DNA of 10,253 nucleotides from Coleofasciculus sp. B1-GNL1-01 (GTDB taxonomy: Bacteria > Cyanobacteriota > Cyanobacteriia > Cyanobacteriales > Coleofasciculaceae): the NCBI GenBank assembly GCA_040220235.1, contig JAVJTO010000054.1, one strand, 5' to 3'. The notes beneath the pieces are model-generated. The model was not told where the DNA came from. It did no database searches and worked only from the letters and a program-made list of their open reading frames with translations. Shown here one piece after another: positions 196 through 10,253 of the stretch. The position numbers were made by a program, and so were the translations under genes. Numbering within the stretch: position 1 is the stretch's first letter; the number at the start of each line of letters is the position of its first letter.

Positions 196-1176
196 TTAAG
201 AGGAACACAACAACTTGATCAGGGATTGGGGTAACTCTTCAAAATGCTCTAACAAAAAGTCCAGGATTGCCAGATGGCGTAAATCTACGGGTTGAGGGGT
301 GTAGTATCCTTTACCTCGTTTGAACCAACACTGCACTGTCCCCAGGGAACGGGAACAGATATGAGACAGTTGTTCATAGGTGACATCCCATTTGCTATAA
401 AACTGCCTTGGCGTCATCCCTAATTCACAGTAACTATAGAGGTCAATAATGTATTTTTCCCGCTGGTTTATCGGGCGGAGATTGTGTCGCCGACGGGGAT
501 TATAGCGTCCAGTTGAGCTATGCACAGATGGGGATGCGATCGCGCCAGGAGAATGGGTGGGATAACGGTAGGGGTTGCCATTATTTTCGGTTGGTTCAAC
601 GGTATCGGGTATTTTTTCTAAATCCGCTTCAGACGCTGTATCTGTGCTTACCCAAGCCGCACTGGGAGAATCCGGGGCGAGTTGGATGATGTAGTAAACC
701 ATCCACTGATTGTGATGGTGGTTGTAGTCATAAAAGCGTCCCAAAATTACGCCCCAGTCTGTTTTATTGGTTTTCCACTGAACGCGATCGCCTTCTTGGT
801 AACGAGGAGTAGGAATTGGCAAAGTGTTGAATTGTGTGTAGGGGCGGGTTTCACTATTATCGTTTCTTTTTTCCCCAGATGTAACTAAACCCGCCCCAAC
901 TAAGTGTTGAGTCTCCATCTCTTCACCATGACGCAGGGCGTTTAATGCGCCAGCGATGAGTTTACCGTCGATGCTTCGAGTCAACTCCTGGATAAATAGG
1001 TTCGCGATCGCATTCACTTCTGCATCGGTTAGGTGCATTTGCGACGCATCGAAGTCAATGTCGCGGTAGTGCTTGATCAGATCGAGGAGTTGGGTAACAC
1101 CAAATTCCGCTAACGCTTGCTGGGCAGTGGTTTCAGCGGTCAGGGATTTGTCAAGTTGAGGGAATAAAGGTTTCAT
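196..1176 (-). CDS. Multidomain protein: N-terminal unknown region, central SH3-like cyanobacterial domain (PRYQEGDRVQW...WGVILG...YIIQL), C-terminal XRE-like helix-turn-helix (MTPRQFYSKWDVTYEQLSHICSRSLGTVQCWF)
   Basis: 326-aa ORF with an AGGAG RBS at 1186-1190 (minus strand) and 3 HIP1 sites. The C-terminal ~90 aa have an HTH pattern typical of small cyanobacterial regulators. Domain names are by eye. Confidence 0.75.
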   Translation of the reverse strand: MKPLFPQLDKSLTAETTAQQALAEFGVTQLLDLIKHYRDIDFDASQMHLTDAEVNAIANLFIQELTRSIDGKLIAGALNALRHGEEMETQHLVGAGLVTSGEKRNDNSETRPYTQFNTLPIPTPRYQEGDRVQWKTNKTDWGVILGRFYDYNHHHNQWMVYYIIQLAPDSPSAAWVSTDTASEADLEKIPDTVEPTENNGNPYRYPTHSPGAIASPSVHSSTGRYNPRRRHNLRPINQREKYIIDLYSYCELGMTPRQFYSKWDVTYEQLSHICSRSLGTVQCWFKRGKGYYTPQPVDLRHLAILDFLLEHFEELPQSLIKLLCSS

Positions 1177-2657: not shown

Positions 2658-5630
2658 CTACTTTTCCGTTTCTCGCCACAGGAATCGCTCTAAGGGAACT
2701 AACCGCATGAGTTCTCGCCCTAAACGTTGATACAGGGGAATCCGTTCTGAGTAGATTTTTGCATATCCTGTCGCTCCCGGATAGAGTTTACCATCACTAT
2801 TATCCACAACAATTTCCACTTGGGCGATGGGTTGGGGTTGGGAGGGTTCATGCTGGATTTGGGGCAGAATTCGTTGTACGGTGGCGGTGTACGGTCTTAG
2901 TTTAGCTTGGCGGGGACGGAAGGTAACGGGTTTGTGGTTTTCTACATATTCTAAGTCTTCTTCCTTAATGTCTACCGTGGCGGTGAGGCTGCTGAGTTCA
3001 GCAATTTCTAGGAGAAAGTCTTCGGTGGGTTTGAGTTCTTGATTTTGCCGTAAGTCTAAATCATTGGTGAGGATAACGCCTGCAATGGGAGAACGTAGGG
3101 TAAGATTTTGTTTAAGGGTTTTTAGTTCAGATAAGCGGTTTTTTAGAGTCGCGATCGCTTGTTGTTGAGTTACCATTTGGGATTCCGCCTGGGCAATCAT
3201 TTCAGAGGCGTCAATGGCGGCAAATTGAGACGCGGTTTCGGTTTGTAAGTCACGGGCGGTGTCGGTTTGGTTTTGTTTGGCGGCGGCGATTTCTTGGGTT
3301 TTGGCGACTAGATTGCTTTCAACGTTGTGGAGTTCACTTTCTACCTCGTCGCGGCGGTTGCGGGAAATTGCGCCTTGTTCGTAGAGTTGGTGATAGCGTT
3401 GGAGTTTTTCCTGGAGTTCGGGGATGCGTTCTTGCAGGCGTTGGCGTTGGGTGTTTAAGACTTGAATTTCGGGGGTAAGTTGTCCTTGAGTTACGGCTTT
3501 TGCGCGTAAGCTTTCTCGACGGGTTTTTGCCATCATCGCTTCGGCTATGGCTTGGACTTCTACCAGTTGGGCTTCGGCGCGGATGCGTTGTTTCTGGGCG
3601 GTGTCTAAGACTTGATGGGCTTGGACGAGTTGTTGTTCGATGGTGGCGATTTCTCGGTCTAATTCTAAACTGGATAATTGTGCCAGAATTTGTCCGGGTT
3701 GGACGGTTTGTCCGGGTTTGACGTAGATTTTTGTAATGACTCCGGCTATGGGTGTGCGGACAATGCTTCTGGCGCCTTGGCGGGTTTCGAGTTCGACGGA
3801 ACCCCCGACTTCAAAGGAGGTGGGGATGAGGCTGATTAGGCTTAAGCTGGTGGCGATGGTGAGGAGGATGGCGATTCGTTTTAGGGGGAGGTGGGGTTTG
3901 CTGGTTGGGGGGGCGAGTGGTAAGGGTTGGGAGGGGTTCATGGGGGTTAGGGGTTGGGGTTGGGGCTTTTTTTGAAACGCAGAGGTTCGCAGAGGTTGGC
4001 GCAGAGGAACGCAGAGGGGTTTAGAGGAGGGATTTTTTGGTTTGTTTTTCTTGTCTGTGTGTACCTCGGTTGGTTTTTGGGGGAAGTAGTAGTAAATTGC
4101 CCAAAGGGTGAGTAGGGTGATTGTCCAGAAGGGGATGTTGGTTAATGTCCAATTTGTGATTAGGGTGAAGAGGCTACCGAAGACGAAGAGGATATAGAGG
4201 AGGCTGAAGGGGGCGTAAGTGGCGAGGATTAGGCGATTGTGGCGGGGTTCGCGGTTGGGGTGTCGGCGTAGTAGGTTTCCGTAGAATTGGAAGGAACGAG
4301 TGCGGAGGTTGTTGATTCCGGTGAGGGCGACGGCGAGATAGTAGCCGTCAAATTTTGCCAGGGGATTGAGGTTGAGGGCGATGGTAAAGAGTGCGGCTAC
4401 CATGAGGAGATAGCTGGCGGTGGCTAACCAATTGGCTGAGGATTGCCATAACCAGAAGGCGGTGGCGGCGATAATTAATTGACAAATAATGCCTGCGCCG
4501 ACGACTAAGATTCGTTTAAATCGCGATAGGCAATAGGAATCTGTGGTATTGGTATAAGCGGCTGGCATTAAAAACATGAAAAGTAGCCCAAATTCGGGGA
4601 CAATGCCGTTGTAATGTTTCAGGGTAAAGGCGTGTCCAAGTTCGTGTAGAGTAACGACTAACATGGCGAGTAGGGCAAAGGGGAATAGGAGAGAAATGCC
4701 ATGATTTGCGACTAATTGTTGTCCGGTGAGGAGAATTTCGGGACGTTGGGATAAACCAATAAATAGAGAAAAGGCTAAAAAAAAGCACAGGATGAGACCA
4801 ATTGAACGAGTCCAAATCCAGTGCAGTTTAGTGATATGTCGAGTTAACCAGGTGTCGGGATTAAATAGGGGAACTTTGAAAAAGAGGAGTTGTAGCGGGG
4901 TGAATTTTCGTTTGGGGGGTTTGGCGGGTTGGGTTCCGGCTAACATCCCGGTGGCGGTGAGGAGTTGTAGGAGATAGCGGAGTTGTTCAAGGGTTAGGTT
5001 ATTGTTTTTGGCGATATCGGCGGGGGGATGTTTTCCTAGTTGGTTGATGGCGGCTTTACTGTGAGAATCAACTTGGAGAAAGGTGACATCTTCGGGATTG
5101 CGTAGTATCCAGTAGCCATCGGAGTGAGGAATCCATTGAACGCAGGATTTGAGTTGAAGTTTGGCGGAATTGGCGGGGTGAGAATTTGGCTGTTGTTCTG
5201 TGTTATCGGTGTCTACTATCTGATTATCTAGCAGTGGCTGAGAATGGGTTGAATTGGGAATTTCTCTGGCATTGTTTATGTTTTGCCCTCTGTCGGCTGC
5301 AACGGGTGGGTTAGGTGGAATGGATTCATCGGATGTGAGAATGCCAAGGGTAATCAGTTTTTGCCATAAATCCCAGATAAAATTCGGGGAAATTGCTGAA
5401 CCATATTTTTTCTGACATTGCTGTTGAAGTTGAGTAACCGTGAAATTTCCGGTGAAATGGCTGAGGGCGTAAACCTCGGCTGGAGATAGGGGAAAATAAC
5501 GATTATCGTGGCGCGATCGCAGAGTATACTGTTTGGATGACGCCTGTTGGCTGAGTTGCCAGTGGGGACTGATGTCTGGGCATATCCAGTCGGGTTGTTC
5601 CTTGGCTGTGAGTTCGTTTCCAACCTGCAT
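2658..5630 (-). CDS. Tandem PqqD/RRE-like domains + M50 (site-2) zinc metalloprotease + HlyD-family periplasmic adaptor fusion protein
   Basis: 990 aa. Two ~75-80 aa beta3-alpha3 units ending in L...G(I/M)L (aa ~17-99 and ~158-231). HELGH at 4632-4646 and NLNPLAKFDG at 4344-4373 lie among multiple TM helices (M50 HExxH...NxxPxxxxDG). These are followed by a TM helix, a lipoyl half-motif (VRTPIAGVITKIYVKPGQTVQPGQILAQL), a long coiled coil, LRSPIAGVI and a beta-barrel ending LYPGATGYAKI. Confidence 0.9.
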   Translation of the reverse strand: MQVGNELTAKEQPDWICPDISPHWQLSQQASSKQYTLRSRHDNRYFPLSPAEVYALSHFTGNFTVTQLQQQCQKKYGSAISPNFIWDLWQKLITLGILTSDESIPPNPPVAADRGQNINNAREIPNSTHSQPLLDNQIVDTDNTEQQPNSHPANSAKLQLKSCVQWIPHSDGYWILRNPEDVTFLQVDSHSKAAINQLGKHPPADIAKNNNLTLEQLRYLLQLLTATGMLAGTQPAKPPKRKFTPLQLLFFKVPLFNPDTWLTRHITKLHWIWTRSIGLILCFFLAFSLFIGLSQRPEILLTGQQLVANHGISLLFPFALLAMLVVTLHELGHAFTLKHYNGIVPEFGLLFMFLMPAAYTNTTDSYCLSRFKRILVVGAGIICQLIIAATAFWLWQSSANWLATASYLLMVAALFTIALNLNPLAKFDGYYLAVALTGINNLRTRSFQFYGNLLRRHPNREPRHNRLILATYAPFSLLYILFVFGSLFTLITNWTLTNIPFWTITLLTLWAIYYYFPQKPTEVHTDKKNKPKNPSSKPLCVPLRQPLRTSAFQKKPQPQPLTPMNPSQPLPLAPPTSKPHLPLKRIAILLTIATSLSLISLIPTSFEVGGSVELETRQGARSIVRTPIAGVITKIYVKPGQTVQPGQILAQLSSLELDREIATIEQQLVQAHQVLDTAQKQRIRAEAQLVEVQAIAEAMMAKTRRESLRAKAVTQGQLTPEIQVLNTQRQRLQERIPELQEKLQRYHQLYEQGAISRNRRDEVESELHNVESNLVAKTQEIAAAKQNQTDTARDLQTETASQFAAIDASEMIAQAESQMVTQQQAIATLKNRLSELKTLKQNLTLRSPIAGVILTNDLDLRQNQELKPTEDFLLEIAELSSLTATVDIKEEDLEYVENHKPVTFRPRQAKLRPYTATVQRILPQIQHEPSQPQPIAQVEIVVDNSDGKLYPGATGYAKIYSERIPLYQRLGRELMRLVPLERFLWRETEK
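3978..4017. repeat. Four CGCAGAGG units (cyanobacterial short dispersed repeat) inside the M50-HlyD linker
   Basis: CGCAGAGG at 3978, 3988, 4000 and 4010. Translated on the minus strand as PLCVPLRQPLRTSAF. Confidence 0.8.
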
Positions 5631-5807
5631 GATGTTTGTAGTAGATGCCTATTTGCAGGGTAAACGGAAATGTTAAGGAAAATCAACCATTTTTTAATAC
5701 CTTTATCAAATCTTTAAACAGAGAGTTATGGGGTTCTACGCTAAATGGCTGAAATAGAGAGTTAAATTTTTAGCCATTTTACTGAGGACAGGCTGAACTG
5801 GCGCGTG

Positions 5808-5904
5808 GTCGATTCGGCATTCAAACCTTAATGTCAATTAGGGTGAAATCCTGGTAGTGCGAGCATCTTGCTCGCTACTCATACCCGATTAAGGCATGAC
5901 CGCT
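5808..5904 (-). mobile_element. MITE family A, copy 3 (inverted, degenerate TIRs, single REP)
   Basis: The reverse complement reads AGCGGTCATGCCTTAATCGGGTATGAGTAGCGAGCAAGATGCTCGCACTACCAGGATTTCACCCTAATTGACATTAAGGTTTGAATGCCGAA, co-linear with copies 2 and 4. Confidence 0.8.
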
Positions 5905-6296
5905 TCCCTAGAGTGGGTTAAGTGAAAAACTGTCACATTTACGACCTATTGCTGATCATCAGGAAGAAGTTCCCAGCTTTATGAAAACTTAATAAAAAAC
6001 TACAGACAAAGTTTATTATTTTGGGATAGGATAGTGAACAAGCTAGATTTACGTTCAGGTGATTTCCCCTTCAACTTAATAGGTTTTCTGTCCGAGTTTG
6101 CTGCTGGCAATTGCTGCTCTATTCAGTAACAGAATTTGCTGGACAATTTGTTGACATTGACTGGCAGCAGCGTTTGGGTTTCAGCGTGCTTATCCAGTGT
6201 TTCCTTAATTCATCGTCATAATGGTGGGCTGGGCTAAAGTCGAACTTACCTGCCAATTTGAATCGGTTTAACCCCTTAGCTAATCAGAACATCATA

Positions 6297-6419
6297 AGCT
6301 GTCATGCATTTAAATTAGTATTAGTAGCGAGCAAGATGCAAAGCCTGCGGCATGGCTTCGCTTAACGCACTACAAGGCTTTCGCCATTATTGACATTAAG
6401 GTTTAAATGCCGAACAGCT
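6297..6419 (+). mobile_element. MITE family A, copy 4 (123 bp, TA-flanked) with a 26-nt insertion in its REP
   Basis: TIRs AGCTGTCATGCATTTAAA / TTTAAATGCCGAACAGCT, with TA at 6295-96 and 6420-21. The REP is interrupted at 6340-6365. Confidence 0.85.
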
Positions 6420-6470
6420 TAGAGATTTTGCCGCTTGGCTTAATCTGTAATTTTACCTGCACTATTCCAC

Positions 6471-6477
6471 AAGAGGG
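6471..6477 (+). promoter_or_regulatory. Shine-Dalgarno site of the giant ORF
   Basis: AAGAGGG ends 6 nt before the ATG at 6484. Confidence 0.6.
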
Positions 6478-6483
6478 TCATCT

Positions 6484-9400
6484 ATGTCTTGGTTTAATTT
6501 TTCCTCAAAGAAACGTCCTGCTGCTCAAGGATTTGCGTCGAAAAAGAAGCGTCAGGAGTTACCGCAAGCCTTTATATTAGAACCGATTTTAACGCCCAGT
6601 GGTTTATTAGATGGCACGGATAATCCCATAGATATCGTGGATATCGATATCTCGGCTGACCAAATTGCTGATATTGATATTCCGGAGTTTGAGGAAGGGT
6701 TTGAAACTATTTCAGATAATAATTTAGAGGAGATTGCCTTCGTTATCTCGGTTGAAGGAGAGGAAACCTTAGAAGAGATTCCCTTTGTTACCTCATTGGA
6801 TGACGCGGCGGAGAGTGAAGCCACTGATGAGGTGCTGACGGACGAAACGCCGTTAAATGAATCGCTATTAACTGGGTTAGACAGTTCCAGTGTGACCTTT
6901 GAATCCGGTGTATTTACGGTTGGAAAAACTGGGGACGTTAGTGTTGATTTCCTCTTTGATGGTGGGGGATATGAAGGTGAACTCGCCGTCTTTAGTTTAG
7001 AGGGGATGGAGGAGTTTGAACCGGGTTCAGAGGCGTTTATTCAGGAAGCCGCCTCTCGTGCGTTGAGTGATTCGGAGTTAGGTCATGTGGTGATTAGTGA
7101 CCAAACCGATGGGGCGCGGTTCGTTGGCGAATTAGGAGAAAGTGACCGAAATTCTGGAGAGTATTTGGGAGTTAAAACAGTCCAAATGCGTCCAGGGGAT
7201 GAGTTTGGCTTCATGCTGGTTCCCAATAATACAGTGCAACGGGTGTTTGATAATCCCGATGTGGGAGGGGCGGCGCGTCCCCTATTTTCTATGGCAACGG
7301 CGAATCCAGATGATGGGTTTCATGTCGGGCAAATTGCCGATGTTACGGGCGATGGAAGTACCTTTGTGATGGAAGATTTGCGGGTGGATACCAAGTCAGA
7401 TGGGGATTATAACGATGTTATTTTCCAAGTGCGCGGGGCGACGGGTGAAGCGGCTTTGATGGATGAGGTGATTGAGTCTGGAAAGGATTGGCGGGAGACG
7501 GATTTGGGTCAAGCGTTGATTGATTATGCGATTGAAAATTTAGCCGATACCGACACGGGAAATACTGATTCTGGCGATATCGACACAGGAGATACCGACA
7601 CGGGAGATAGTAATTCTGGCGATATCGACACAGGAAATACCGACACGGGAGATAGTAATTCTGGCGATATCGACACGGGAGATACCGATTCTGGCGATAT
7701 TGATTCTGGCGATACAAACCCAGACGAGACTGACCCCGTTGAACCTGTGGTAAGCTATGAGTTTCCAGAGGAAGACCAGCCGCTAATTGGGGTAATTGAT
7801 ACAGGGTTTAGTGATGATAATCCCGATATCGATTATTCTCAGATTACGTTAGGGAGCGATCGCGTCGATAATGATTCTAACCCCTTATTGGTATCTGGAG
7901 AGGGGAATGAGCATGGGACTCATGTTTTAGGAATTATTGCGGCACAACAGGATAATGATATCGGCATCGATGGGATTAATGATGATGCGCCCTTATGGGT
8001 AGGACGTGCGGTTGGTTCTGGAGAATGGGCAGATTCGTTAGTTGAGTTTGTCGATACCGCCAAGGAATCAAGTCAACCGAATGCGGTTGTGAATCTGAGT
8101 TTGGATTTAACCCAAGTGAACTCCGATGGTAGTGTAACTACCCGTTATGAGTTTACACCCGAAGAACGGGCGGCGATTGAATATGCCCGTCAGAATGGGG
8201 TGTTAATTGTCGCCGCCGCCGGGAATGATGGGGATGTAATGTCCGTTTTGGGTCAAGCATCTCAGGAGTTTGACAATATTATTACCGTAGGTGCAGCGCA
8301 ACAGGTAGAAACCGATACGCCCTCTCCAACCTATCAACGGGCGTATTATTCCAGTTATTGCAGGGGTTTAGATATTTTAGCCGAGGGAGGTACATCTGAG
8401 AATCCAGTTGTGTCTACCGTCGAGGATAGTGTTGGCACAATGGCGGGAACCTCGGTGGCGACAGCCAAAGTAACGGGGGCGGCTTCTCAAGTGTGGGCGG
8501 CGAATCCCCAGTTAAGTTATCGCCAAGTGATTGAAGTTCTTAAGTCTACGGCGACTGATTTAGCAGAACCCGGTTGGGATGCAGAAACAGGAACGGGATT
8601 ATTGAATTTGGCCGCCGCCGTGGGATTGGCGCAGGTAACGAAACCTGAAGACTATGCCATTCCTGCTATCGATATTCCTGAGACTTGGAGTGGTGAGGAT
8701 GTAGTCACACCGATGGAACGGGCAGCTGGTTTATTTAATCAGTTACCCTCTGGTGGCGTAACTGCGATCGCGTCTAGTGAGCTACAACGACTCAATAGCA
8801 TTAAAACCATTATTAGCACTGTTGCCAATCGTTTCAACATCCTCCCAGAAATTATTGCAGGTATCATTAGCCGAGAAACCAATACCCGGAACATCCTTGG
8901 CGATAATGGACACGGACATGGATATATGCAACTTGATATTGGTACTTTCCCGAATATCAAGTTTCAACCTTGGTATGACGCCGCTTGGAATATTGAACAA
9001 GGTGTCAATCTGTTAATCAATGATAAATATGCATATCTCAAACCAAGGTTGCCAGAGTCGTTACATTTGCGAGGTTCCTTAGCTGCTTATAACTCAGGTC
9101 AGAGTAATGTTGTTAAGGCATATCAGCGAGATTTAGATGTTGATGCCTATACCACAGGCAAAAATTACAGTGCTGATGTACTAAATCGCGCCCGTTGGTT
9201 ACTGCAAAATGGGTGGAATGGTAAGAGTTCTACACCGACTCCTTCACCTCAAGAAACTCGTCGTCCTTACATTGTCCGCCCAGATGAAACGCTTTGGGGA
9301 ATTGCTCAACGAGAACTCAACAATGGTAACCGTTGGCGGGAAATTCAGAAAGAAGATGGCAGCACATTTACTGAAGCTCAAGCAAGTCGTTTGCAGGTTG

Positions 9401-10253
9401 GTCAAACCATTTATCTACCTGTGAAATATCAGACGGGAACTGGCAAACCTGTGACACCTCCACCAATTAGTAACCCAATCATCATTAACAGCCAAATTGG
9501 TAGAAGTTCGCGTGCGCCTCATTTATTCCAGGAAGCTTATAGCCGAATTAATGGGAATGATCTCGGTTTAACGCCAACAAAAGATGCTTACCGTTGGGGT
9601 AACGGTTGGACACAAGAATTCCGTGATCGCAACGGGAACCGTGTACTCCTAATGTTAGAGGATGGCGCGACTAAAGCCTTCTCTGTATTAGGCAACAATT
9701 TAAATGAATATGAATTTATGGGGGGAGCCGTAGGTCGAGATTTAGACGGTCGGCAAGTGTATTTGGGTTATCCTCGGTCTGATGAAAATATCTTTACCAA
9801 AGATGGCAAACGAGCCGTTTGGCAAGCCTTTGCCGCTGAGAATGGGAAAGCTCGAATTCATAACCTTTATGGTCACGCCTCCGTTGTCACCTGGGGAACC
9901 ATTGGTGCATTTTACACCGATTTAGGTGGTGCTGGTCATTGGTTAGGAATGCCAACTCGTCGAGAATATATTCATAGTAGCGATACAATTTTCTCTGACT
10001 TCCAAGGAGGTCGTATTGCTTACAACCGGAACGATGGTCGCACTGAGGCACTACGATATGATGAACAACCATCTTGGTGGTTTCCTAATAATATCCATTT
10101 GAAACCTGGAAACAACAACTTAGATTTTGGTCGTGGACAGGAATGGATTACACCTGGAGGCTATAAGTTCCGCTTCCAGGAAGATGGAAATTTGGTTTTG
10201 TATGACCCACAAGGAAAACCCACATGGGCAACGGGGACAGTGAATATAGCTGA
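6484..10253 (+). CDS. Giant multidomain secreted-type protein (partial, >1256 aa): LEP-motif leader, DUF4114-like domain, S8 subtilase, g-type lysozyme (GH23), LysM, LGFP repeats, bulb-type lectin
   Basis: Manual translation from ATG 6484 ([12 protein letters not shown]...) shows no stop to the window end. The terminal TGA is out of frame, which is why the ORF track misses this gene. Domain motifs are listed as separate features. Confidence 0.95.
6895..7530 (+). other. DUF4114-containing domain of the giant ORF
   Basis: [29 protein letters not shown] ... [23 protein letters not shown]. The EDL...D.DYND motif is the DUF4114 signature (possible Ca2+ binding). Confidence 0.7.
7546..7710 (+). 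repeat. In-frame 15-bp tandem repeat: 11 x (D/N)-(T/I/S)-(D/N)-(T/S)-G pentapeptide linker
   Basis: [55 protein letters not shown], with a 45-bp higher-order period. Confidence 0.92.
7777..8630 (+). other. Peptidase S8 (subtilisin-like) domain
   Basis: IGVIDTG (Asp 7798), [11 protein letters not shown] (His 7912), VAAAGN (oxyanion Asn 8224), GTSVA (Ser 8452), ending [10 protein letters not shown]. Confidence 0.95.
8752..9216 (+). other. Goose-type lysozyme / GH23 domain
   Basis: [26 protein letters not shown] (Glu 8875), [13 protein letters not shown] (Asp 8902, 8935), [15 protein letters not shown] and [25 protein letters not shown] parallel the goose lysozyme motifs [34 protein letters not shown] and TTHDDYANDVVARAQ. 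Confidence 0.9.
9268..9420 (+). other. LysM domain
   Basis: [26 protein letters not shown]...[10 protein letters not shown]. Confidence 0.9.
9520..10050 (+). other. LGFP-like repeats (2 clear, 1 degenerate)
   Basis: YEFMGG...LGYPRSDE (9763) and [25 protein letters not shown]...DFQGGRIAY (9943). Confidence 0.75.
10120..10253 (+). other. Bulb-type (GNA-like) mannose-binding lectin domain, truncated by the window
   Basis: [28 protein letters not shown] contains the QxDxNxVxY motif at 10177-10203. Confidence 0.85.

Follow-up and report, generated by a model that had tools for sequence, protein, structure and literature searches.

A cyanobacterial RRE-M50-HlyD module proposed to process and export very large leader-tagged proteins

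Fusions of an M50 protease to a HlyD adaptor, and of an M50 protease to a RiPP (ribosomally synthesised and post-translationally modified peptide) recognition element, or RRE, have each been described, and both bear on a divergent gene pair in a 10,253-bp stretch of Coleofasciculus sp. B1-GNL1-01 DNA (the window, meaning the whole stretch analysed, which is one entire contig). One gene encodes a 990-amino-acid (aa) fusion of two RRE-like domains, an M50 site-2 protease and a HlyD adaptor; the other encodes a cargo protein of more than 1256 aa headed by a short leader. In 2015 Kamneva, Poudel and Ward noted loci that encode an M50-HlyD protein and a secondary SecA but lack an ABC transporter, and suggested the M50 protein as the pore (PMC4452313); the strings ‘cyanobact’ and ‘LEPR’ are absent from the main text of that paper, and its passages on the locus do not name a substrate. 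In daptide biosynthesis, passages of a 2023 preprint describe a leader, E-8 L-7 D-6 P-5 M-4 E-3 A-2 P-1, that is removed by an RRE-fused intramembrane peptidase, and whose L-7 and M-4 are required for RRE-dependent processing by MpaB and MpaC, themselves RRE-bearing (10.1101/2023.03.08.531785).

The first-pass annotation of the window, made from its letters alone, had proposed a candidate new secretion system. It is not wholly new, as ABC-less M50-HlyD loci were already on record in the 2015 paper. Like the locus set out in its passages (SecA_DEAD / Peptidase_M50-HlyD / GAF-HlyD / OEP), the present one has an M50-HlyD protein without an ABC transporter, and homologous M50s were found beside a SecA-like gene. 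Unlike it, there is one SecA_DEAD match in the genome and no GAF adaptor or TolC in 72 cyanobacterial loci, two RREs are present, and the cyanobacterial M50s form a separate clade (SH-aLRT 99, quick tree). With the daptide peptidase MpaP/DapP, as those preprint passages describe it, the module shares the fusion of RRE to M50 and a leader register of L-[ED]-x-hydrophobic-x-x-P before the cut. It differs in having substrates of 1000–4400 aa instead of peptides of ~50 aa, no modifying enzymes, and a HlyD adaptor, and in scoring 131 bits, against a cut-off of 300, with the daptide intramembrane metalloprotease family NF041824, its best NCBIfam match. Among open reading frames (ORFs) of at least 70 aa in the 72 loci, a short Thr-ending precursor with dehydrogenase, aminotransferase and methyltransferase genes did not recur.

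Type I secretion offers a third comparison. In peptidase-containing ABC transporters (PCATs) an N-terminal leader is removed at the inner-membrane unit, as is proposed here, and type I systems likewise use a HlyD adaptor, substrates without a Sec signal and, presumably here too, a TolC (unlinked in this genome). The cyanobacterial loci differ in lacking a linked ABC ATPase, RTX repeats and a double-glycine leader, with a zinc intramembrane protease in place of C39. The system thus resembles both a PCAT-type type I exporter and MpaP, yet falls outside canonical type I secretion systems and daptide clusters, and outside the definition of the SecA_DEAD locus. Literature searches, covering few subscription journals and no supplements, turned up neither a description of the cyanobacterial system nor one of large proteins exported by RRE-M50-HlyD, nor an experimental test of the 2015 locus family; the steps described below are computational throughout.

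The fusion protein and proposed recognition of the cargo leader

Processing of the cargo leader by the M50 module is well supported. The two ORFs lie divergently where the first-pass annotation had placed them, at 2658–5630 (minus strand) and 6484–10251 (plus strand, 1256 aa, open at its 3' end) in the ORF listing, and as the window is an entire contig the cargo C-terminus falls outside the assembly. The nearest named relatives are Coleofasciculus records (86–96% protein identity). The features needed first are these:

2658..5630, minus strand: RRE-RRE-M50-HlyD fusion gene, 990 aa (ORF, family searches, AlphaFold2, structure matches)
5334..5582, minus strand: RRE1 (aa 17-99), PqqD-like fold (AlphaFold2 and structure match)
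4938..5159, minus strand: RRE2 (aa 158-231) (structure match, complex model)
4080..4898, minus strand: M50 site-2 protease domain (aa 245-517) (Pfam, alignment, structure match)
4632-4646, minus strand: zinc motif H329-E330-x-x-H333; third zinc ligand D428
2661..3890, minus strand: HlyD-type periplasmic adaptor with membrane anchor (aa 581-599), lipoyl domain, coiled coil and beta-barrel
6484..10253, plus strand: cargo gene, >1256 aa, ending at the contig edge
6484..6606, plus strand: leader, a basic stretch followed by [11 protein letters not shown] (aa 30-40 = 6571-6603)

Pfam places M50 at aa 318-509 of the fusion protein and HlyD families at aa 624-953; its N-terminal domains were named by no sequence library searched. 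An AlphaFold2 model built from 117 homologues (mean predicted local distance difference test score, pLDDT, 84.7) superseded one from 8 sequences that was poor in the membrane part (pLDDT 54), and gives both N-terminal domains three strands and three helices, arranged as the three-stranded sheet and following three-helix bundle of the RRE/PqqD fold. The best structural match of RRE2 (aa 156-232) is lasso B1 with a bound leader (6jx3; Z 10.2, rmsd 2.3, 76 aligned); further matches are another leader-bound RRE, 5v1u (Z 9.7), and ThcOx, an oxidase with tandem RREs (Foldseek E 2e-4). RRE1 (aa 12-100) matches PqqD (5sxy; Z 7.8, rmsd 2.9, 87 aligned), a middling Z that is level with non-RRE winged-helix rows. 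The membrane part matches the site-2 protease 3b4r (Z 8.0, rmsd 4.5, 124 aligned) and carries HExxH and N-x-x-P...DG within its bundle, with H329, E330, H333, N422 and D428 invariant in 117/117 aligned homologues. The first reading of this protein as two RRE-like domains, an intact M50 and a HlyD adaptor is borne out by these comparisons, in which RREs are the best matches of both N-terminal domains.

Query coverage of at least 83% was counted by hand in 46 of 120 listed protein clusters, and since the full-length form recurs the fusion is no artefact. Split M50/HlyD forms are common, and one genus-level lineage lacks RRE1. A second system on contig C88 of the same genome (19620-29015) comprises a complete 1178-aa cargo, a 402-aa gene and split M50 (479 aa) and HlyD (461 aa) genes, all co-directional; the head-to-head pairing stressed in the first-pass annotation is therefore not general. 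Most of 16 stand-alone HlyD adaptors have a conserved cytoplasmic L-K-V-V-P-P (alignment columns 22-28) before a Pro-rich tail, a possible docking motif, perhaps for RRE1; it is not evident in the aligned part of the fused protein.

The cargo carries a tag of the F-I-L-E-x-I-x-T-P-S type. Aligned by eye, with no statistics attached, I31-P38 falls in the daptide register, L32..P38 corresponding to L(-7)..P(-1), so that an ELExMEAP-like pattern ends at P(-1) and a cut is predicted at P38|S39; precursors in two fetched daptide clusters follow the same leader pattern. A modelled complex of zinc with residues 10-520 of the fusion protein and 13-60 of the cargo reached a score of 0.67 (best control 0.00), on a scale whose mark was attained by 116 of 157 solved pairs and 2 of 215 mismatched pairs; contact agreement between runs was at least 46% and partner pLDDT at least 42. 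In this model cargo aa 26-41 contact strand 183-188 and helix 216-227 of RRE2, and then M50 residues E330, H333 and 420-431, including D428. The contacts of lowest error are those of L32 and I35, and RRE1 lies outside the interface. On this modelled evidence the leader would very probably bind RRE2 as a strand added on beta-3, the kind of RRE-leader contact that had been anticipated. The zinc M50 would then, with only slightly less confidence, cut after P38 as MpaP does, a step suggested by register and model together. MpaP is a closer analogue than the Bacillus YydH named in the first-pass annotation, both by leader register and by NCBIfam score (131 versus 50 bits, both under cut-off).

Distribution of module and leader

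M50, leader and HlyD profiles were searched in the same 401 genomes of the phylum. The M50 profile matched 38 genomes at E <= 1e-20, and the 28 better than 1e-100 were counted as M50 genomes, leaving aside one fragment (in genome G212) and nine distant homologues (E 1e-39 to 1e-21). Co-occurrence of the two families had been offered as a check on the first-pass annotation, and is seen: the leader is present in 24/28 M50 genomes and 2/373 others, where the matches are a 68–74-aa frame and a match with stops. The profiles were partly built from the same genomes, 15 of the 28 having supplied training sequences for the leader profile; among the 13 M50 genomes outside training, the leader is found in nine, one of them weakly. 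As kin are not independent, a Fisher test on these figures overstates the association, and they are given as counts and not as a test. The pairing is found in many filamentous cyanobacteria.

The leader gene lies within 20 kb at 21/34 M50 loci, while 28/50 leader matches are elsewhere in the genome, with up to eight per genome. A cognate HlyD (at least 184 bits, all others at most 119) occurs in 18 genomes, all among the 28 with M50, one copy having a stop codon. In three genomes (G008, G092 and G328) it is far from M50 and beside leader genes, so that all three pairwise links between the families exist. A leader search of 1.84 billion representatives gave 139 clusters, 63 of at least 1000 aa and 56 below 500 aa; the motif, part of whose consensus is preset by the regular expression used, falls within the first 130 residues in 134 of them, at a median position of 30. 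The quick tree gives the relation of cyanobacterial, proteobacterial and daptide M50s a support of 76, so no direction of origin is claimed.

Several observations concern the edges of this distribution. The nine distant M50 homologues lie outside the clade, and in seven regions opened at least three adjoin lipoprotein-type S8 genes without the leader; at L081, L083 and L086 such M50s are near lipoprotein-type S8 and radical-SAM-like genes (the latter by N-terminal motif), possibly a separate RiPP-like cluster. In a complete genome without an M50 match (G047), a 68-aa ORF with the leader precedes one of 915 aa (L147:5500-8488); this may be a cargo that decayed once the module was lost. M50/HlyD genes with internal stops or in fragments were seen at L078 (G083), L079 (G212) and L065 (G104), and the RRE-M50-HlyD system seems to decay often.

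The cargos and their exchangeable C-termini

The first-pass annotation had noted that the giant protein lacks a Sec/Tat hydrophobic signal, and this is confirmed: none was found in the first 100 aa, where the highest 15-residue hydropathy is 1.11, nor was a Sec-like hydrophobic stretch found among 38 cargos (highest value 1.46). Behind the basic N-terminus and leader come a strongly acidic spacer, DUF4114, an S8 protease, a lysozyme and weakly matched C-terminal modules, as follows:

7186..7437, plus strand: DUF4114 (aa 235-318) (Pfam)
7546..7714, plus strand: 15/45-nt tandem repeat encoding a D/T/G-rich pentapeptide linker
7777..8598, plus strand: S8 subtilase, D439/H477/S657 triad intact
8683..8727, plus strand: conserved junction motif (aa 734-748), at the border of the conserved N-part and variable C-part
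8767..9213, plus strand: goose-type lysozyme (aa 762-910)
9268..10245, plus strand: LysM (aa 929-978), LGFP-like repeats and the start of a lectin-like region (aa 1193-1254), all weak matches
5631..6483, strand not assigned: divergent intergenic region, holding two opposed copies of an interspersed repeat (5813-5905, 6290-6421)

The S8 residues D439, H477, N581 and S657 are intact. The goose-type lysozyme (E 2e-18) keeps its catalytic Glu and Asp motifs, E798 included; the LysM and lectin-like matches are below curated cut-offs, with only LGFP above (24.6 versus 22 bits). DUF4114 was found in 30/30 long leader proteins scanned, and a 229-aa DUF4114-region match without the leader lies on contig C167. 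In three cargo sets that overlap slightly, of 5, 17 (excluding two non-cargo rows) and 30 (taken from 49 matches of 1000–2300 aa), S8 is present in 5/5, 12/17 and 24/30 and a Pfam peptidoglycan hydrolase in 5/5, 5/17 and 9/30. The label of lysozyme effector therefore fits this copy and not the family at large. The leader also heads S8, calpain, M8-like, Ig/dockerin, Calx-beta and nucleotidyltransferase bodies, and because these bodies are unrelated the substrates are defined by the leader, not by S8 or lysozyme. The nucleotidyltransferase domain ends the leader cargo at L053:9900-18092, and would have to get inside a target cell.

The N-part is common to the relatives, which diverge after a fixed motif at aa 734-748. 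One orthologue is 78% identical up to aa 747, and then different, ending in PA14, LGFP and M23; the motif is present in 40/61 close-family S8 cargos, against 0/15 distant ones, and at least five peptidoglycan hydrolase families were found in the C-terminal slot. The motif is a candidate self-cleavage or recombination site, and makes S8 self-release plausible. A variable C-terminus behind a fixed motif recalls polymorphic toxins with autoprocessing (Rhs, CdiA, MARTX-CPD), which also pair a conserved N-part and a fixed junction motif with a variable C-terminal enzyme; here the candidate processing enzyme is S8, the C-parts are multi-domain, and no immunity gene was identified. A search with the last 276 aa of the cargo gave no usable match. 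Contigs of three metatranscriptome runs and one unlabelled run cover both genes to about 8620 and almost nothing of 8744-10253, which fits a swapped C-terminus; such coverage shows neither transcription nor its absence and is given no weight here.

Across the 72 loci no immunity-like neighbour proved to be conserved, by a clustering that would miss variable immunity genes, and in the window the DNA downstream of the cargo is absent. ORFs of 250–280 aa stand directly behind the cargo at L048:12659-13420, L066:8096-8917 and L067:13761-14609, and may be foldases or immunity proteins. Small proteins of secreted type that look PEP-CTERM-like by eye recur near L062, L063, L065 and L122; L068-L077; and L016 and L129-L131.

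The remainder of the window holds an interspersed repeat of ~130 nt with terminal inverted repeats (1-199, 2480-2636, 5813-5905 (inverted) and 6290-6421); inside it a 21-nt unit is tandemly repeated (6.5 and 2.9 copies), its 64-nt end has 227 genome matches, and it is probably an element of the MITE (miniature inverted-repeat transposable element) or REP (repetitive extragenic palindromic) kind. A 162-nt direct repeat (1299-1460 and 2320-2481; 92% alike, two genome matches) flanks a 200-aa ORF at 1633-2235, which has nothing over cut-off in Pfam or NCBIfam and is present in some orthologous loci and not others, as if mobile. A 326-aa ORF at 196-1176 (minus strand) matches no family over cut-off and is conserved at L001 and L003, where it likewise lies downstream of M50-HlyD.

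Proposed export route and its alternatives

As the first-pass annotation had remarked, there is no ABC transporter among the ORFs of the window, and no recurrent ABC exporter was found among 856 ORFs in the 72 loci: ABC motifs occur in four ORFs, which on inspection neither recur nor resemble exporters, and only the M50/HlyD and cargo families recur widely. Its alternative of a C-terminal RTX signal receives no support, as 37 complete relatives contain no RTX nonapeptide; the C-terminus of this cargo itself lies beyond the contig. RRE-M50-HlyD fusions occur among plasmid-borne M50 homologues (77 records). Ten proteobacterial regions were opened. Six of them lack an ABC gene and contain TolC, two further adaptors and a protein that is large or repeat-rich; of the others, two have a SecA-like or DEAD-box-annotated neighbour, one is a few kb from a canonical type I system and one is clipped by the record start. 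In 5/7 proteobacterial loci whose N-termini were read, a neighbour starts LE[PA]RxxFD, with spacing as in LEPILTP.

This invites comparison with the LEPR-XLL giant proteins (NF012209), which share a basic N-terminus followed by an L-E-P motif. NF012209 gave nothing over cut-off in five genomes, the cyanobacterial leaders being unscored, and as it also misses the five proteobacterial LE[PA]RxxFD leaders the test is narrow. The cyanobacterial leader profile gives no score on proteobacterial N-termini, and an hhalign probability of 0.4% is not significant; register and context suggest that the leader may be kin to LEPR-XLL. Passages of a 2026 preprint place LEPRxLL N-termini on giant proteins beside TolC and do not mention M50 (10.64898/2026.03.19.712371). 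A multi-repeat adhesin type I system of Pectobacterium, considered as a precedent, was rejected, as the passages on it describe a LapG-associated system.

The full mechanism of leader-guided processing and export, judged slightly more likely than not, would run as follows. After tag binding and cleavage, HlyD would connect the inner-membrane unit to the cell's TolC, and a cargo of 110–450 kDa would cross the envelope in one step with neither a Sec/Tat signal nor an RTX tail, which is reasonably likely. That the M50 membrane domain itself provides the entry site, without an ATPase dedicated to the task, is the weakest link and somewhat doubtful. Outside the cell, the chances are about even that the cargo's own S8 would cut near aa 734-748, freeing the swappable C-terminal part. 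Here that part would be a lysozyme with cell-wall-binding modules, and it is fairly likely that it would attack neighbouring mat bacteria. One module would serve several cargos scattered through the genome. A bolder version is distinctly tentative: that a daptide-type RiPP leader peptidase became the inner-membrane core of an ABC-less, SecA-less secretion system, in which RRE2 reads an eight-residue tag, the protease cuts and chains of 110–450 kDa pass to HlyD-TolC, delivering S8 self-processing polymorphic antibacterial hydrolases, and that the same tag logic would explain the LEPR-type giants of other phyla.

A number of observations, besides the shared training sequences, weigh against this mechanism. 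The score of the complex may reflect resemblance to solved RRE-leader structures, and its partner pLDDT is below 50 in a job unlike the calibration set. Four of the 28 M50 genomes have no leader match, and many of the 56 leader clusters below 500 aa look like fragments. Most scanned cargos have no peptidoglycan hydrolase match, and S8 is absent from 6/30 and 5/17. No motor was found: the genome has one SecA, and no ATPase was found in the 72 loci. A cognate HlyD is missing from 10/28 M50 genomes (all candidates were scored in five), most of which keep leader cargos of 1168–1780 aa beside or away from M50; seven sampled HlyD-less genomes and one further row form one subclade (SH-aLRT 93, quick tree). 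With HlyD absent from these ten and no energy source found, processing is well supported, participation of the module in export is likely, and a pore working without an ABC transporter is unproven, as is the replacement of an ABC transporter by the M50 module, as pore or motor, that the first-pass annotation proposed.

That gap is where the best-surviving alternative enters, although it is itself rather unlikely: the RRE-M50 unit would trim the leader and HlyD would adapt, with pore and energy supplied by an ABC transporter (or SecA) encoded elsewhere, so that M50 replaces only the C39 domain of a PCAT-type exporter. The genome holds eight strong C39-ABC matches that could act in trans, together with a single, unlinked TolC; SecA-like ATPases occur in some homologous loci; and lineages without HlyD keep leader and cargo, so parts can be supplied in trans. 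The M50 model is, moreover, a small helical bundle, which is not known to be able to translocate chains of 100–450 kDa. A trans-acting ABC transporter sits poorly with the lack of a recurrent one in the cyanobacterial loci and in otherwise complete-looking, TolC-containing proteobacterial operons, and with an adaptor that is repeatedly fused to M50, not to ABC.

Less probable again is that the export model is right and the cargo is a surface or sheath protein, its hydrolases remodelling the producer's wall or recycling mat debris. Many relatives do end in adhesin-like or protease domains, and the missing immunity-like neighbour fits such a role. Against it stand the C-termini exchanged between close orthologues at the fixed motif, such swapping being typical of polymorphic toxins, and the variety of hydrolase families in the C-terminal slot; one-step export would also be expected to bypass the producer's own wall. 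That the module is a maturation protease only, removing a retention or inhibitory leader from cargos that exit by vesicles, lysis, type IV pilus or type II-like secretion machinery, with HlyD a dispensable relic, is very unlikely: one subclade has lost HlyD, and part of it RRE1, while keeping M50 and cargo, and MpaP is described, in the preprint passages, as a leader peptidase in clusters with their own ABC transporters (10.1101/2023.03.08.531785), but HlyD is kept in 18/28 genomes, many lineages have it fused to M50, and its linkage to cargo genes does not depend on M50.

The cyanobacterial system is genuine and conserved. It is a SecA-less variant of the locus family that was noted by computation in 2015, and it has a tag of the daptide type, substrates scattered through the genome and enzymatic tails that can be swapped. 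It bears on the exit route of giant proteins that have LEP-type N-termini and no signal, and the cyanobacterial branch is the simplest form seen in this analysis, with one or two genes, no ATPase and an unlinked TolC. The proposed mechanism makes predictions at the level of residues: binding through L32 and I35, a cut at P38|S39, and catalysis by E330. If true, it would connect protein secretion with the leader logic of RiPPs, provide a short export tag for large proteins, and point to a family of polymorphic hydrolases with which cyanobacteria compete in mats.

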